From: Aquirhabdus parva
Lineage (GTDB): Bacteria > Pseudomonadota > Gammaproteobacteria > Pseudomonadales > Moraxellaceae
DNA length: 24,000 nt
Assembly (NCBI RefSeq): GCF_003351745.1
Contig: NZ_CP031222.1
Location: forward strand, 454,207 to 478,206
Direction of reading: 5' to 3'
Under the pieces are notes generated by a model that did not search any database, had not been told where the DNA came from, and worked only from the letters and a program-made list of their open reading frames with translations. Shown in pieces: positions 10,433-16,980 of the stretch. Position 1 is the first letter of the stretch. Every line of letters starts with the position of its first letter. The position numbers were made by a program, and so were the translations under genes.

Positions 10433-10879
10433 CTATGCGGTTCGCGTCTTGGTCCGTTTGACGATTTTCAACTTGGGCAAACCAAAGATACGGTCAAAGC
10501 CCCAGTTAAAGACGAGACCATACACCAGATAAAACAGCATAAATGCAATATCCGTGATCAGCGCTTCCCACAAGCCAATATTTAAAGTCCAAGCCAGCAG
10601 CGGCAGAGAAACGGTCATTAAACCGGCCTCAAAACCAAAGGCATGGAGAATACGCCGTTTGAGCGTACGGATTTGGCTCTTTTGGCGCGCTTCCCAGCGT
10701 TCAAAGAGTTTGTTAAACAACAGATTCCAGCCCATGGCAATCAGGGACAATAGGATTGCGAGCGCCCCAAGGTGCGCCTTGTCCTCATGAAAAAATAGGG
10801 CAGCAATCATGATAAAGAGTACAACTGCAATGGATTCAAAGAGTGCAGTATGGATAATTCTACGTTTTAGGCCTTGCAT
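10433..10879 (-). CDS. PACE-family efflux transporter (AceI-like, tandem BTP domains)
   Basis: The protein is about 149 aa with 4 TM helices and a duplicated motif, KRRIIHTALFESIAVV and LKRRILHAFGFEAGLM, matching the AceI pattern KRRLIHAISYEG / VRILHAIGFEGG. With ATG 10879 the conserved TM1 glutamate falls at residue 15, as in AceI. The track start at 10891 is TTG. Confidence 0.85.
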   Translation of the reverse strand: MQGLKRRIIHTALFESIAVVLFIMIAALFFHEDKAHLGALAILLSLIAMGWNLLFNKLFERWEARQKSQIRTLKRRILHAFGFEAGLMTVSLPLLAWTLNIGLWEALITDIAFMLFYLVYGLVFNWGFDRIFGLPKLKIVKRTKTRTA

Positions 10880-10960
10880 GATCTTTCTCAACTTTTTAAA
10901 GCGGTCTGATTTGAAATTGATGTTTCAAATGCTTAGTTAGCCGCGATAAGTTGACTTTAT

Positions 10961-10975
10961 ATCGAAATACATGAT
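10961..10975. promoter_or_regulatory. candidate LysR-type regulator box (ATC-N9-GAT, T-N11-A)
   Basis: ATCGAAATACATGAT lies in the 198-bp divergent region between the PACE gene and the LysR gene. It fits the generic LTTR dyad, which is a short motif that can occur by chance. Confidence 0.25.
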
Positions 10976-11077
10976 ACTTAAAAGTTAGTACCTTTCAGTT
11001 TTTTTGATAGATTGGTGGTCTCGAGTTTTAGATAATAATCTTAATGATCCACAAGGCTTTGATTAATAGGTGTTTCG

Positions 11078-11998
11078 ATGCTCGAACATGGTGTGAATGG
11101 CTTTGTAGTCGGCAACGTCTCTGTTGAAAGTTGGCGCGTTTTTTTATTGGTGGTTGAGCACGGCTCTTTTTCGGCGGCAGCACGACAACTTCACAAAGTC
11201 CCTTCAGCGATCAGCATGATGATTGCCAATCTTGAAGCCGACTTGAATCTGGAGTTATTTGATCGCAGCCGACGGGAACCGATCCCCACGGCTGCTGCAC
11301 GAGCTCTTCTACCCAATGCGCGCTATGCCATCCAGCAATTGCAGCAACTTGAGACGCATGCCTTGTCATTGTCGCAAGGATTAGAAAGTACGCTCACCCT
11401 CGTTGTTGATCCTGCATTGCTGGTTGGGGATTGGATAAGTGTTCTGGGCGATTTAGCGACAGCTCACCCTGATCTTGCGGTTGAAGTGTTGGCTGCACAA
11501 GCCTCTGACGCGATGCAACTGCTTCATGAAGGGCGTGCGCAATTGGGACTCTTACTTGAACGACCACAAATGGATAATCGTGAAGGATTCTTTGAGATTC
11601 ATAGCGAGACATTTGTTGCCGTGATGTCACCCAAGCATTCCATCTTTGTGACTCAAGAAAGCATCAACTTTGATGATTTGATGGCCTCGCGGCAGATCGT
11701 TGTTGCAAGTTGGAATGCGGATGAGGTCGATGAACGTTTCGCAATGAGCAGTCAAATCTGGCGAACCGACAATTACACCTCAGCGGTCGGCTTGATCCAA
11801 GCTGGATTGGGGTGGGGGATGCTGCCGCGTTCGATGGTACGGTCTTATATTAACTCTGGATCACTGGTAGAGATTCCGCTAGAGAACCTTAAAAATACCA
11901 TGGTGCTTGCAGTGGATATGGTGTGGTCCAAAGAGCAACCGATGGGGCTGGCCACGCGTTATATTCTGGATCGAATCGGGGCGAGCTATCTACGCTAA
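11078..11998 (+). CDS. LysR-family transcriptional regulator (AceR-like position, divergent from PACE pump)
   Basis: An N-terminal wHTH (FLLVVEHGSFSAAARQLHKVPSAISMMIANLEADL) is followed by a C-terminal substrate-binding domain. AGGTG lies 5 nt upstream of ATG 11078. Confidence 0.9.
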   Translation: MLEHGVNGFVVGNVSVESWRVFLLVVEHGSFSAAARQLHKVPSAISMMIANLEADLNLELFDRSRREPIPTAAARALLPNARYAIQQLQQLETHALSLSQGLESTLTLVVDPALLVGDWISVLGDLATAHPDLAVEVLAAQASDAMQLLHEGRAQLGLLLERPQMDNREGFFEIHSETFVAVMSPKHSIFVTQESINFDDLMASRQIVVASWNADEVDERFAMSSQIWRTDNYTSAVGLIQAGLGWGMLPRSMVRSYINSGSLVEIPLENLKNTMVLAVDMVWSKEQPMGLATRYILDRIGASYLR

Positions 11999-13322: not shown

Positions 13323-14249
13323 CTAGGTCTGCTGATTGATACCGCTTAAGTTGCCTTGCAAGCCACCGGTATGAATCGCCAGAATTTTGCTGTGCGCAGG
13401 GAAGTAACCGCGTTCAATTAAGTCAAAAATCCCAAACAGCATTTTTCCTGTATAGATCGGTTCGAGCTCAATTTGAGTTTGCTTTTGAAAATCATGGATA
13501 AAATCGAGTAGCTCAGGTGTAGTCTTGGCGTAGCCACCAAAGTGATAGTCCAAGCACAGATCCCAATTGGTGCGGGTTGCCCATTGCCTGATTTCATCAA
13601 AAAGAAAACCACCTTTGAGTGCAGGGAAGCCCAAGACTTTTTGTCGTTCAGCACTTGAGTTAATGATCCCCGCTATGGTGCCACCAGTGCCTACGGCACA
13701 GCAGATCACATCGAAGTTTGCACGATCCTGCACGGTCAATATCTCTTCGCAGCCTTGTACTGCCAGTTGATTGGTTCCGCCTTCTGGAATCAGGTAGAAC
13801 TCACCCAATTTTGCTCGAAGATTTTCGAGGAAATCGGTATCGGTTTTTCGGCGATAATCTGTGCGACTGACGAAGTGCAGTTGCATGCCGTTGGCTAGCG
13901 CTTGGGCAAGCGTGGGATTGTCGGCGATTTTATCTGTTAGCTCTTCGCCACGAATGATGCCGATGGTTTGAAAGCCATGCTCTTGACCTGCTGCGGCAAC
14001 AGCAGCGATGTGGTTGGAGTAGGCGCCGCCAAAGGTAAGGAGGGTAGTGTGTCCCTGTTTCCGAGCTTCAATCAGGTTGTATTTGAGCTTGCGGAATTTG
14101 TTGCCTGAAATCGTGGGGGGCAGGAGGTCTTCACGTTTGAGGTGGAGTTGGATGTTGCGGGGCTGAATCTGTGGAAGACGGTGCATGCTAGAGATGCCTG
14201 CTTTATTGAACCCGTTAAAGCAGGACATTGGATTAAGATGCTTTTCCAT
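13323..14249 (-). CDS. PLP-dependent 1-aminocyclopropane-1-carboxylate deaminase / D-cysteine desulfhydrase family protein
   Basis: Supporting motifs are KREDLLPPTISGNKFRKLKYNL (the PLP lysine motif GNK-x-RKL), TFGGAYSNH, CAVGTGGT and IHTGG. The start is uncertain: ATG 14249 overlaps the upstream gene by 17 nt, and the alternatives ATG 14228 and 14186 also lack a strong SD. Confidence 0.85.
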   Translation of the reverse strand: MEKHLNPMSCFNGFNKAGISSMHRLPQIQPRNIQLHLKREDLLPPTISGNKFRKLKYNLIEARKQGHTTLLTFGGAYSNHIAAVAAAGQEHGFQTIGIIRGEELTDKIADNPTLAQALANGMQLHFVSRTDYRRKTDTDFLENLRAKLGEFYLIPEGGTNQLAVQGCEEILTVQDRANFDVICCAVGTGGTIAGIINSSAERQKVLGFPALKGGFLFDEIRQWATRTNWDLCLDYHFGGYAKTTPELLDFIHDFQKQTQIELEPIYTGKMLFGIFDLIERGYFPAHSKILAIHTGGLQGNLSGINQQT

Positions 14250-15561
14250 AGTATTCTACAAGGAGTTTTTCTATGGTTTTATTAATTTTGGATGCATCTA
14301 TTTTATTCGATATTTTTAATAATAAAGAAATACTTCTATTGTTTTTAATGTCAATTTCATTAAGTTTATGTTTTTCAACAAGCTTAATCCAGTTTAATTG
14401 AGGTTTATCGGACGTTAATTTATGTAAAATTCTAGTATCGCTAGGTAGTACATTATTTAAATAATAGGCCCATCTATCTACAGTTATTCGATCAAGGATT
14501 TGTGATGCTTCACTTTCAGCACTCCAAGCAACTCCATAAGAATTTCCTAGTACAATGCATAAAAGAGCACTTATGCATGCAGGAAGTGCGGGGGTTGGAA
14601 TTGTCGATCCGAGTTTAGAGAGGTTCTTAACAGGCGTGGCTTCATTGTAGAAGTTATTTAAACCTTCATGAGCTCGAATAATAGCTTCGGCTGCTTTTAC
14701 AAAGGTGTCACTGCGAAGGTTCTCTGGTACATAGTCGAATCCACCTACTTTAAGCAGTGCACTTTTTAACCCACTTACAACAGTTGCTTTTCCATCAGCA
14801 TAAGCCTCGGCATAGGTGTGCCCTATTTGCCACTTTTCTGTATCGCGTAGATTTAACCAAAGCGCTGGTAAAAGTACATTAATATTAGCAAGGGTATGTT
14901 CTAAGTTAGCCCCATTATTTTTTTTCGCGGCATTCATTAATACACTAATAGTAAGCTTGTAATAAAAATATGGCGAGCTTTTAAGCATTTCAACACGTTG
15001 ATCTTTATCATTGAATGTTTCATCTTCAAGCGCATCTCTAAAATCAACAAACTTCTTAGCAACTTCAACCTTAGGCCGACCAAGAACCCCTTTTATGCAT
15101 GCTTTCAGTGAGCCAATGGCTTCAGCTTCATCTATTTCTTCAGCGTCACTTTCTACAGTTTCCATCTTGGAGAAGTGTGTAATGAGTTCATATGTATGCC
15201 GGAGCCGCATTCCTTCGGTGGATGATATAATACCCAGTTCTTCAGCCAGTCGTACCGCATCCTTAGTTGTTAAGATATCATCAACATCATCATCTTCATT
15301 TACATCGGGTTTTCCAAGCATTTCCCCTAATAAGCCAACGCCTACAGTGGAAAGTTCTTTTTTCAAAGCGGTTATTGTTTTTCCCCAGAGATAATTTATG
15401 GCCATTTCAAAATGCCCTGCATCAAATGCAGAAACAATTTGATTTCTATCCTTAATACTAAGCTGTTCTGCATATTGTGATATCTCAGCAGGAGTTTTAG
15501 CACTAGAAGGAATTAGGTCACTATTTTTTTGTTGCCATAACGCGATGTTATACATTTTCAT
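14233..15561 (-). CDS. hypothetical helical protein (442 aa), partner of the DAC-like protein
   Basis: This long uninterrupted ORF in AT-rich DNA has ATG 15561 or ATG 15555 as its start. AAGGA lies 7 nt upstream of 15555. The start overlaps the upstream stop (15548) by 8-14 nt. The product has an acidic tract (DVNEDDDVDD) and no family motif I recognise. Confidence 0.75.
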   Translation of the reverse strand: MKMYNIALWQQKNSDLIPSSAKTPAEISQYAEQLSIKDRNQIVSAFDAGHFEMAINYLWGKTITALKKELSTVGVGLLGEMLGKPDVNEDDDVDDILTTKDAVRLAEELGIISSTEGMRLRHTYELITHFSKMETVESDAEEIDEAEAIGSLKACIKGVLGRPKVEVAKKFVDFRDALEDETFNDKDQRVEMLKSSPYFYYKLTISVLMNAAKKNNGANLEHTLANINVLLPALWLNLRDTEKWQIGHTYAEAYADGKATVVSGLKSALLKVGGFDYVPENLRSDTFVKAAEAIIRAHEGLNNFYNEATPVKNLSKLGSTIPTPALPACISALLCIVLGNSYGVAWSAESEASQILDRITVDRWAYYLNNVLPSDTRILHKLTSDKPQLNWIKLVEKHKLNEIDIKNNRSISLLLKISNKIDASKINKTIEKLLVEYYGKAS

Positions 15562-16570
15562 TTCCTTTAAATTCTGACCAACCGTCTTGGGATTGCATAA
15601 AAACAGCAGTCAAACCTTTACCGATTTTCATCCCCAGAGCTTCAAATGCTCTTCTTCGCGCGCCACCAACTATGCCATGTTCTTGTCTTAGCTTCACAAA
15701 ACAGTTATAGCCTAGAAGTTGTCCAGAGTCATTGAATAAAATAATTCCATCAGAATTTAACATCCCATTTAGTAGATACCCTTTACTTTCTAATTCAGAT
15801 GGGGGTATTTGATCCTTTTTAAGAGATTTAACCAGATCTGGGAAACTAATTGGTTTTTCAAGTATTACACCATCATTAGATAGGAATGCAGGCGCTTTCG
15901 TTCGATTTGTGACGGCAATAATACAGCCATGCGATTGACGAAGAGCTTCGAAGAGCATTCTTGATACAAAACTGATAGTAGGCTCTCGTTCAATATCCTC
16001 AGTTTTCTCGGTAATGGCTCCAACCAATGCATCCAAAAATTGAAGTGGAGGGGGGCTATTATCTTTTCTATGGTTTAAAAAAATATAATGATGTCCTCCA
16101 TTATTGCAACGGATTTCAACGCAATCATCGGCAATTTGGTAGGCTTTCACAATTGGGAAAACAGGATTTTTATCCATCAATACTACATCAATTAATACAG
16201 ATATAGGATGACTAGACCCTCTGAATACCCCGTATTCAATACCGTTAGAACTTCCTTGTATATAAACTAGCCATCCACTTGTTGCAAGCGGTGCACATTT
16301 TTTTAGAGCTTGTTTTATTCCAGAAATATTAGCACTTGAACTCCCTATTTTTATACGTTCAGCTTCGGGAAGCATGCTTATAATATTGTTCATATTGTTT
16401 GTTAGATAGACTTTAGGACATAGACTAATCCCTTCTTCTTGGTATCTGGATAATAATACAACTAATTCAACCAAGTGTAAGTTATCGGCTAATAATTCTA
16501 TTTTACTATTCTGGCAAAATTCTGAGACGCCGCCAATTAATTGAGTTCTAAAAGTTATATTTGTTGACAT
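15548..16570 (-). CDS. diadenylate-cyclase (DisA_N/DAC)-like domain protein with uncharacterised N-terminal domain (340 aa)
   Basis: ATG 16570 has TAGGAT 10 nt upstream. The C-terminal half carries HGCIIAV (aa 214-220), SDGIILFNDSG (273-283), GGARRRAFEA (302-311) and AVFMQSQDGWS (322-332). These run in the same order, with about the same 30-aa DG-to-RxR spacing, as the DAC motifs GALIV / DGA / GTRHRAA / S-x-x-x-G. Aa 1-190 are unrecognised. Confidence 0.75.
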   Translation of the reverse strand: MSTNITFRTQLIGGVSEFCQNSKIELLADNLHLVELVVLLSRYQEEGISLCPKVYLTNNMNNIISMLPEAERIKIGSSSANISGIKQALKKCAPLATSGWLVYIQGSSNGIEYGVFRGSSHPISVLIDVVLMDKNPVFPIVKAYQIADDCVEIRCNNGGHHYIFLNHRKDNSPPPLQFLDALVGAITEKTEDIEREPTISFVSRMLFEALRQSHGCIIAVTNRTKAPAFLSNDGVILEKPISFPDLVKSLKKDQIPPSELESKGYLLNGMLNSDGIILFNDSGQLLGYNCFVKLRQEHGIVGGARRRAFEALGMKIGKGLTAVFMQSQDGWSEFKGNENV

Positions 16571-16607
16571 TGTTTAGCGATCCTATTGCTAATACTTTCT
16601 AGGATTT

Positions 16608-16635
16608 ATTCTATCAGATATGATGTTATTCTGAA
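16608..16635 (-). promoter_or_regulatory. candidate sigma70 promoter for the two-gene islet operon
   Basis: On the minus strand, TTCAGA (16635-16630) is followed by a 16-nt spacer and TAGAAT (16613-16608), about 38 nt upstream of ATG 16570. This is a pattern match only, made in very AT-rich DNA. Confidence 0.25.
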
Positions 16636-16775
16636 TAAATAAAAATTGCTCAAAATTTCATTTTTAATATTTATATTGGTTTTGTGAAACTAAACACGCT
16701 CGATTAATTTTCGGTTAACATTAAGTTTCACAGATTGAAAGTACTCAGAGAATCTATGCTGTAAGTATTCGCAAG

Positions 16776-16812
16776 ATACATCTTGATTTTTTTGATAAAA
16801 ATCAAGATGTAT
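16776..16812. repeat. perfect 16-bp inverted repeat with 5-nt spacer
   Basis: ATACATCTTGATTTTT (16776-16791) - TTGAT - AAAAATCAAGATGTAT (16797-16812), read directly from the sequence. It sits in the divergent region between the islet operon and the acyl-CoA synthetase gene. Confidence 0.9.
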
Positions 16813-16980
16813 AAACCTAAGTTAGAGTTGAAATGTAGTTCCATTCATACTTTTTGATTGTTTCGTTATATTTTAAGACTTCATTCTGACCATTTCCATC
16901 ATTGACACCCCATCATCCATACGTTAAACCTGTTTTGAACAACATACCCCTGAAAATAATGAAACATCACAAGGAAAGAG

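Follow-up and report, generated by a model that had tools for sequence, protein, structure and literature searches.

A horizontally acquired islet of Aquirhabdus parva carries a candidate nucleotide-signalling conflict module with a DAC-fold protein

Described DAC systems and the A-B pair

Immune synthases of the diadenylate cyclase (DAC) fold have been known only since 2026, in two architectures, and the demonstration that DAC enzymes act in immunity (10.64898/2026.08.10.743927; PMC13640721; PMC13092281; PMC13069673) is the precedent for the interpretation given here of a two-gene pair, A-B, from the Aquirhabdus parva chromosome. The pair lies in a stretch of 24,000 nucleotides (nt) that was analysed as a whole and is called the window. 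In the first architecture, CBASS-DAC/DS-2 (Liu-DS2), the gene for the CdaG-family protein DS-2C of ~550-575 amino acids (aa) lies in one operon with those for a CD-NTase and a patatin phospholipase; defence by this system has been validated and needs the catalytic residues of DS-2C, which is built from DACNG, DACNH and DAC domains and a helical bundle (PMC13092281, PMC13069673). The DACNH domain of CdaG, which stands before the DAC domain, is described as a very distant, catalytically dead DAC relative (PMC13640721). The second architecture, Panoptoo/PanDA, combines PanS, a minimal DAC of ~150 aa, with the 2TM-beta effector PanE, and PanS constitutively makes cyclic di-AMP (c-di-AMP) or cyclic UMP-AMP (cUA), a signal that keeps PanE repressed until it is taken away by phage sponges (10.64898/2026.08.10.743927, PMC13640721). 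An original prediction for the A-B locus, made from the DNA letters without database searches, had held that no defence system built on a DAC-fold enzyme was described, a statement that these two systems make outdated. Both 2026 surveys report CBASS-DAC and Panoptoo/PanDA as the only defence-enriched DAC classes; since both were seeded with recognised DAC families, a clade too divergent for the Pfam DAC model would have escaped them.

The A-B pair is interpreted here, at a probability of roughly 0.55, as a horizontally mobile two-gene conflict module, most likely an anti-phage one that signals through nucleotides, as judged from sequences and structure models. Since its occurrences include restriction-modification (R-M) operons, CBASS neighbourhoods, plasmids and integrative islands, the pair probably constitutes an undescribed anti-phage system based on nucleotide signalling. 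It appears to be undescribed in the literature searched, and its predicted architecture makes it a strong candidate for a third DAC-fold defence architecture. If validated, A-B would extend nucleotide-based immunity by a new synthase architecture and by a receptor or effector fold that is also new, and the stand-alone relatives of B on Gram-positive and Acinetobacter plasmids bring a second uncharacterised family into view.

The pair fits neither the Panoptoo/PanDA nor the CBASS-DAC architecture. With Panoptoo/PanDA it shares a two-gene operon found mainly in Proteobacteria, a DAC-fold partner with DG and R-x-R type motifs, a G+C content (GC) that is low relative to the host and proximity to defence islands and CBASS, the latter at one locus in the case of A-B. 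PanS, however, consists of the DAC domain only, whereas A has 340 aa and a conserved N-terminal domain of 190 aa, and PanE is a membrane effector of the 2TM-beta (S2TM-beta, Cap15-like) type, whereas B is soluble, all-alpha and 442 aa long. The guard logic against nucleotide sponges is shown for PanS and PanE. DS-2C resembles A in being a multi-domain DAC protein found in defence contexts, but it is far longer than A, and its DACNG and DACNH domains are found by Pfam neither in A nor in 94 relatives (E<=1). The CBASS-DAC operon includes a CD-NTase and a patatin phospholipase, neither of which is present in the window, and A instead always pairs with B. The canonical enzymes DisA, CdaA, CdaS and CdaM/DacM have the same fold as the last 150 residues of A, with the DG, R-x-R and Ser-acidic-Gly motifs at matching positions; they are encoded by core genes, in contrast to A, which is accessory and mobile and differs from them in its accessory domains and its partner.

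A horizontally acquired islet and its two proteins

Genes A and B lie on the minus strand between a PALP-family gene for a pyridoxal-phosphate (PLP) enzyme and a gene for an AMP-binding acyl-CoA synthetase (ACS), as assigned with Pfam, and the two overlapping open reading frames (ORFs) stand where the original prediction had placed them (Table 1). The product of gene B is 100% identical to NCBI entry WP_114897888.1 from the A. parva chromosome, which starts at Met3 of the ORF and has 440 aa, so that the overlap between A and B measures 14 nt as called and 8 nt with the NCBI start. The GC is 0.363 in A, 0.367 in B and 0.293 in the leader (16571-16980), compared with 0.47-0.49 in the flanks, and the GC at third codon positions (GC3) is 0.246 in A and 0.257 in B, compared with 0.50-0.53 in five neighbouring genes. 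At a GC of 0.356 the islet is the lowest 2.75-kb stretch of the window and lies ~7.5 standard deviations under the mean of the reference used, which comprises 316 non-overlapping 2.75-kb windows (mean 0.477, standard deviation 0.016, minimum 0.444). The abrupt break in composition and codon usage that had been read from spot counts is thereby confirmed. The remainder of the 24 kb encodes housekeeping Pfam families. Mobility features, which had been described as invisible, were not found by searches either: no tRNA was detected in the window, no integrase or transposase is among its genes, and the search for flanking direct repeats around the islet gave nothing meaningful.

The insertion site was compared with the help of a metagenome scan using the PLP enzyme, which yielded three close relatives (L025, L026 and L027; 76-81% aa identity); the comparison is thus one between species, with metagenome relatives, and not one within Aquirhabdus. 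In L027, whose PLP enzyme is 81% identical at the aa level and ~76% at the nt level, the divergent ACS and PLP genes lie directly side by side, with no A-B between them. The gap between the ends of homology is 226 nt in L027 versus 2745 nt in the window, where the ends fall at 16895 and 14149 and so place the insert at about 14150-16894. In L026 (L026:3980-5322) this gap contains an unrelated gene for a 324-aa secreted protein with a signal peptide; in L025 (L025:1-1359) it contains a lipoprotein-like ORF of 232 aa and a membrane ORF of 98 aa, before the PLP gene. The empty site in L027 and the different cargo in L026 and L025 make the ACS-PLP gap a variable spot in this lineage, in the manner of a small hotspot at which no recombinase is visible. 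The islet is shown by these comparisons to be horizontally acquired, between core genes that would otherwise be divergent neighbours, as had been proposed; the presence/absence polymorphism suggested as a check on that proposal is seen, at the level of species, in the absence of A-B from this gap in the metagenome relatives.

The family of gene A was collected by searching 1.84 billion cluster representatives (50%-identity library) exhaustively with HMMER at E<=1e-3 and comprises 631 representatives, nearly all of ~340 aa, in Proteobacteria and beyond. In the alignment of 94 members on which conservation was computed, E45, E46, L95, G114, G215, D274 and R305 are invariant, and G47, K90, W100, H214, G275, G302, G303, R307, S327, D329 and G330 are at least 90% conserved. 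The AlphaFold2 model made from this alignment has a pLDDT of 95.8 and a pTM of 0.90, and its best 45 Foldseek matches in the PDB are all CdaA, DisA, CdaM or DacM, with probabilities of 0.99-1.00, E values from 2e-4 and target-normalised TM scores up to 0.63. These alignments span the C-terminal 145-175 residues at 12-18% identity. The family profile matches the PDB sequences 2fb5, DisA (3c1y) and CdaA (6gyw) at E values of 0.03-1, seven of the 94 members weakly match the Pfam DAC family (PF02457; best E 0.0023), and the homologue in P. synxantha is labelled 'DAC domain-containing protein' in UniProt. The agreement of structure model and fold search, profile-to-PDB alignment, weak Pfam matches and UniProt label identifies A as a DAC at the level of the fold, in keeping with the DAC-like motif set from which this had been surmised; A has the three-dimensional DAC fold and falls outside PF02457 membership by the curated sequence threshold.

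Judged from the aligned motifs, namely DG, GGAR-x-R and S-x-DG, most of the phosphate- and metal-binding DAC positions appear to be retained in A. The middle residue of the R-x-R motif varies across the family, between the two conserved arginines. The S327-Q-D-G330 element presumably corresponds to the CdaA metal-binding loop, as judged from its position. The N-terminal domain of A is conserved as strongly as the C-terminal half and is confidently folded in the AlphaFold2 model; it has no Pfam, PDB or profile match. As an observation on the model only, the order of its helices and strands resembles a DAC domain and recalls the DACNH domain of CdaG. The possibility that the N-terminal half is a degenerate DAC duplicate was considered and found no support, the hhalign comparison with the C-terminal half giving a probability of only 0.1%. 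Both A and B look soluble.

For gene B, the AlphaFold2 model (67 diverse sequences; pLDDT 91.3) has 25 helices and no strands, and the single hydrophobic helix of the protein sits inside this globular helical model. The best Foldseek match in the PDB is a designed ARM repeat (E 6.5e-3, TM 0.25), part of a set of weak solenoid resemblances only, and a Foldseek search of BFVD returned nothing. The sole family match is PHROG 27609, of unknown function (7e-17). Homologues of B are widespread, occurring in Pseudomonas, Halomonas, Marinobacter, Rheinheimera, Agrobacterium, Rhizobium, Sphingomonas and many metagenomes, and are always annotated as hypothetical. In the motif at residues 297-307, A297, N303 and E307 are invariant and H298, F304, Y305 and N306 reach at least 90% conservation, and this extends to relatives of 20-24% identity. 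The assignment of B as a HEPN/Abi_C RNase was tried and rejected: there is no Pfam Abi_C or HEPN match and no HEPN protein among the Foldseek matches, hhalign against an AbiJ Abi_C protein gives a probability of 0.2%, and the window B has no R-x4-6-H motif at the position where stand-alone relatives carry RN-x-x-S-x-A-H-P.

Stand-alone B-like proteins, which are longer (455-486 aa) and align with B over ~80% of its length at 19-26% identity, are encoded on plasmids of Streptomyces, Clostridium perfringens, Bacillus, Rhodococcus, Listeria, Acinetobacter schindleri and Pantoea, and every copy is annotated as hypothetical. They share with B the invariant W59 and C155 and the AH..NNFYNE and LGN.YG positions. 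They differ in an extra N-terminal segment, which A-linked B lacks, and in an invariant RN-x-x-S-x-A-H-P motif that is absent from A-linked B, the window B reading ITHFSKME at this place. To the eye this motif looks HEPN-like, without profile or fold support. Neighbours of the stand-alone genes are resolvases, toxin-antitoxin (TA) pairs and ParAB, with no A gene beside them, and the copy on Listeria pLIS32 adjoins an AbiJ-type protein (AbiJ_NTD3+Abi_C). The idea that B-only forms are confined to c-di-AMP-making phyla is weakened by the stand-alone copies on Acinetobacter and Pantoea plasmids.

Linkage, neighbourhoods and competing explanations

Each of the 11 genome loci recovered with A (Methylobacter, Massilia, Chromatiaceae, a Clostridia metagenome-assembled genome and others) has A and B side by side, as do both A-bearing plasmids (Vibrio and Agrobacterium) and every locus recovered with B, and the genes are still adjacent where identity to the window proteins has dropped to 28% for A and 42% for B. 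Their reading frames overlap, in the window as well as at several other loci. These observations show the linkage of A and B to be obligate. B is the better conserved partner, for example at 60% versus 38% or 42% versus 28% identity. A separate observation concerns P0069 (L113:675-2495), an A-like protein of 31% identity that is fused to an unrelated C-terminal extension of 260 aa and has no B downstream. The extension has no Pfam match and is not B, and fusions of A-like proteins showed no informative domain; the extension may provide the same synthase with an alternative partner domain.

Known or candidate defence genes occur within 10 kb of the pair in ~10 of 16 distinct contexts, a raw count that is not scaled to the genome background, with R-M, CBASS, Hma-like, PDC, RmrA and BstA genes being counted. 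The pair recurs among known defence genes and on mobile elements, and the co-occurrence and clustering named as a check in the original prediction are both found, A and B being adjacent across loci. Two of the contexts are type I R-M operons that hold the pair between their own genes (Table 1). The CBASS genes of the Agrobacterium locus are transcribed divergently from A-B, and this is the sole CBASS-adjacent locus of the ~16 contexts. The widespread island represented by L016 carries, in addition to its integrase, BstA (KilA-N + BstA_C), an RmrA-like ImmA/IrrE protein and ParDE, and looks like a satellite or integrative-island defence hotspot. In P. synxantha, the pair, PDC-M30A and the DUF5131 gene make up a small accessory islet next to a gene of the Dus family.

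In the mechanism proposed for the pair, A would be a cytoplasmic enzyme whose C-terminal domain is a divergent, probably active DAC-fold nucleotidyltransferase and whose N-terminal 190 residues would serve as a family-specific regulatory or sensor domain. B, presumed to be translationally coupled to A, would be a soluble helical partner that forms a complex with it. The DAC domain would make c-di-AMP or a related (cyclic) dinucleotide from nucleoside triphosphates, with either the N-terminal domain of A or B coupling this synthesis to infection and B reading the signal. The signal might act as an infection-triggered activator, as in CBASS, or, as in Panoptes and Panoptoo, as a decoy that is present constitutively and keeps B inhibited until it is lost. 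A more specific version of this proposal, held tentatively and at somewhat less than even odds, is that A-B represents a third independent recruitment of the DAC fold to immunity, with a new sensor domain, a partner fold absent from solved structures and a logic, and possibly a product, unlike those of Panoptoo and CBASS-DAC; B would then derive from the stand-alone plasmid family and would have lost RN..S.AHP on becoming dependent on the DAC protein.

Several observations weigh against the nucleotide-signalling interpretation. As single sequences, A and B have no match in Pfam, NCBIfam or PADLOC 2.0 at E<=1, so that the PADLOC search suggested for the pair recognises neither gene; A has no match among PDB sequences and B no meaningful one. 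B is also without a recognisable effector or receptor domain in the Foldseek search of the PDB and lacks the transmembrane segment expected of known cyclic-dinucleotide effectors; with no informative fold match, it is as unrecognisable as had been reported. Conservation in the A family does not extend to the Ala of DGA or the His of RHR, and the window A has DGI and RRR at these places. DAC catalysis requires two domains facing each other, and catalysis by A would depend on such an arrangement. Because A-linked B is without RN-x-x-S-x-A-H-P, it may not be catalytic, and the slower evolution of B fits A as the sensor and decides nothing. In the window and in six further loci (L105-L109 and L111) the pair is surrounded by housekeeping genes only; it is present on only 2 of 72,556 plasmids, and neither A nor B has a match among 50,697 phage genomes.

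Some of these features would suit a defence module in which the roles are reversed or signalling plays no part, B being a sensor or scaffold for a phage component and A the effector, which is considered rather unlikely. The DAC-fold domain would in that case consume ATP, flood the cell with c-di-AMP, a molecule not normally used by most Proteobacteria, or transfer a nucleotide onto a target held by the N-terminal domain. Such a role for B agrees with its sole and weak structural resemblances, which are to ARM/HEAT/TPR solenoids, typical recognition scaffolds, and with the loss from A-linked B of the motif that is invariant in the stand-alone relatives. A role as effector for A finds support in its second strongly conserved domain with the invariant E45-E46 and in the occurrence of P0069 without B and with a different extension. 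The polar motifs of B, AH-x-G-x-NNFYNE and LGN-x-YG, are nevertheless kept at ~20% identity, which suggests that B has its own pocket or active site, and B evolves more slowly than A, the opposite of what is usual for sensors of phage proteins. To our knowledge, all characterised DACs are signal synthases, which also counts against reversed roles.

Two further explanations are less consistent with the genomic contexts than defence is. A selfish addiction or exclusion module, TA-like and acting in plasmid or island stabilisation or in competition between elements with no primary anti-phage role, is judged unlikely, slightly more so than reversed roles. The pair is compact and overlapping, and its neighbours often include TA genes: L016 has ParDE, and ORFs that look PIN-like and HipA-like by eye occur in L003, L004 and L009. 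Regulators of the ImmA/IrrE type are also close by. On small plasmids of Clostridium, Bacillus, Acinetobacter and Streptomyces, stand-alone B-like genes have resolvases, partition genes and TA pairs as neighbours. Proteins of 340 and 442 aa, however, far exceed typical type II TA components, the HipA-like neighbours have no PADLOC match, and repeated embedding in type I R-M operons with adjacency to CBASS and R-M is a classic signature of phage-defence cargo. Since many TA-like modules are abortive-infection systems, this explanation overlaps with the anti-phage interpretation. It is highly improbable that A-B is instead a horizontally acquired housekeeping c-di-AMP pair, acting for example in osmotic or envelope homeostasis with no genetic conflict, even though canonical DACs are housekeeping regulators and the pair is found among metabolic genes in A. 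parva and several other genomes. Its distribution is patchy across unrelated phyla, it is present or absent at a variable site with extreme compositional deviation, and it occurs on plasmids, inside R-M operons and beside integrases. In addition, no known c-di-AMP target or phosphodiesterase is linked to it in any locus examined, and the A family is too divergent for the Pfam DAC model.

Feature coordinates and other observations

Table 1. Features of the A-B islet in the window and gene contexts of the pair and of stand-alone B relatives in other loci
Feature	Location	Strand	Remarks
Inserted low-GC islet	14150..16894	-	A, B and AT-rich leader; ends of homology to the empty site in L027
Gene A	15548..16570	-	340 aa; N-terminal domain and C-terminal DAC-fold domain; ORF listing
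A N-terminal domain, residues 1-188	16007..16570	-	By conservation; E45-E46 invariant, G47/K90/W100 at least 90%
A C-terminal DAC-fold domain, residues 189-340	15551..16006	-	By Foldseek and family profile
A D274-G275	15746..15751	-	DGA-motif equivalent; aligned to D75-G76 of T. maritima DisA
A G302-G-A-R-R-R307	15650..15667	-	GTRHR-motif equivalent; aligned to G-T-R108-H-R110 of DisA
A S327-Q-D-G330	15581..15592	-	Positional counterpart of the CdaA S-E-E-T-G loop; between last two model strands
Gene B	14233..15561	-	442 aa; all-alpha; ORF listing
B A297-H-E-G-L-N-N-F-Y-N-E307	14641..14673	-	Best-conserved stretch of the B superfamily; by conservation
B L338-G-N-S-Y-G343	14533..14550	-	G343 invariant; L338 and N340 at least 90%
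AT-rich leader/promoter region of the A-B operon	16571..16894	-	GC ~0.29; by composition
Perfect 16-bp inverted repeat, 5-nt loop	16776..16812		In leader, ~205 nt upstream of A
hsdM-hsdS-A-B-hsdR	L008		Pair inside type I R-M operon
hsdR-hsdS-A-B-hsdM	L009		Pair inside type I R-M operon; HsdR family differs from that of L008
CBASS cyclase and phospholipase	Agrobacterium pAtCG920		Bordered by the pair; 8.6e-120 and 1e-154
Type II restriction endonuclease and methyltransferase	L110		Directly after the pair; 9e-103 and 7e-156
Type II R-M	Vibrio plasmid		2 kb from the pair
HmaB-like methylase; PDC-M38A/B	L010		Directly upstream of the pair (1e-262); downstream (4e-223)
PDC-S04	L011		Near the pair
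GMT-wHTH protein (PADLOC candidate PDC-M30A) and DUF5131 protein	P. synxantha, L015:11565-13628		After the pair
Widespread island, at least 24 contigs	L016:1-1530, L016:11493-12809		P4-type integrase directly beside B
Stand-alone B-like genes	L014:5794-7254, L022:4848-6215, L023:4785-6203, L024:4797-6215, L114:4303-5703, L115:4791-6206		

The leader has no match to a riboswitch or other family in Rfam, and sigma-70-like matches in it are not commoner than in shuffled sequence. The arms of its inverted repeat are ATACATCTTGATTTTT and AAAAATCAAGATGTAT. The repeat, which could be an operator or a hairpin, is not kept upstream of A in 17 other loci. At the other end of the pair, the called end of B and the PLP-enzyme ORF share 17 nt (region 14186-14249). 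This overlap is probably a longest-ORF artefact, because the homology of the relatives starts only at ~14149-14154 and their PLP ORFs begin differently; the true start of the PLP enzyme is likely to be an internal Met, Met8 or Met22.

Elsewhere in the window, at 10433-11998, a gene for a BTP-domain protein (chlorhexidine efflux transporter family, AceI-like) is divergent from a 306-aa ORF at 11078-11998. From its sequence and position, this ORF is a candidate LysR-type regulator, and the arrangement resembles the AceI/AceR pair known from Acinetobacter.

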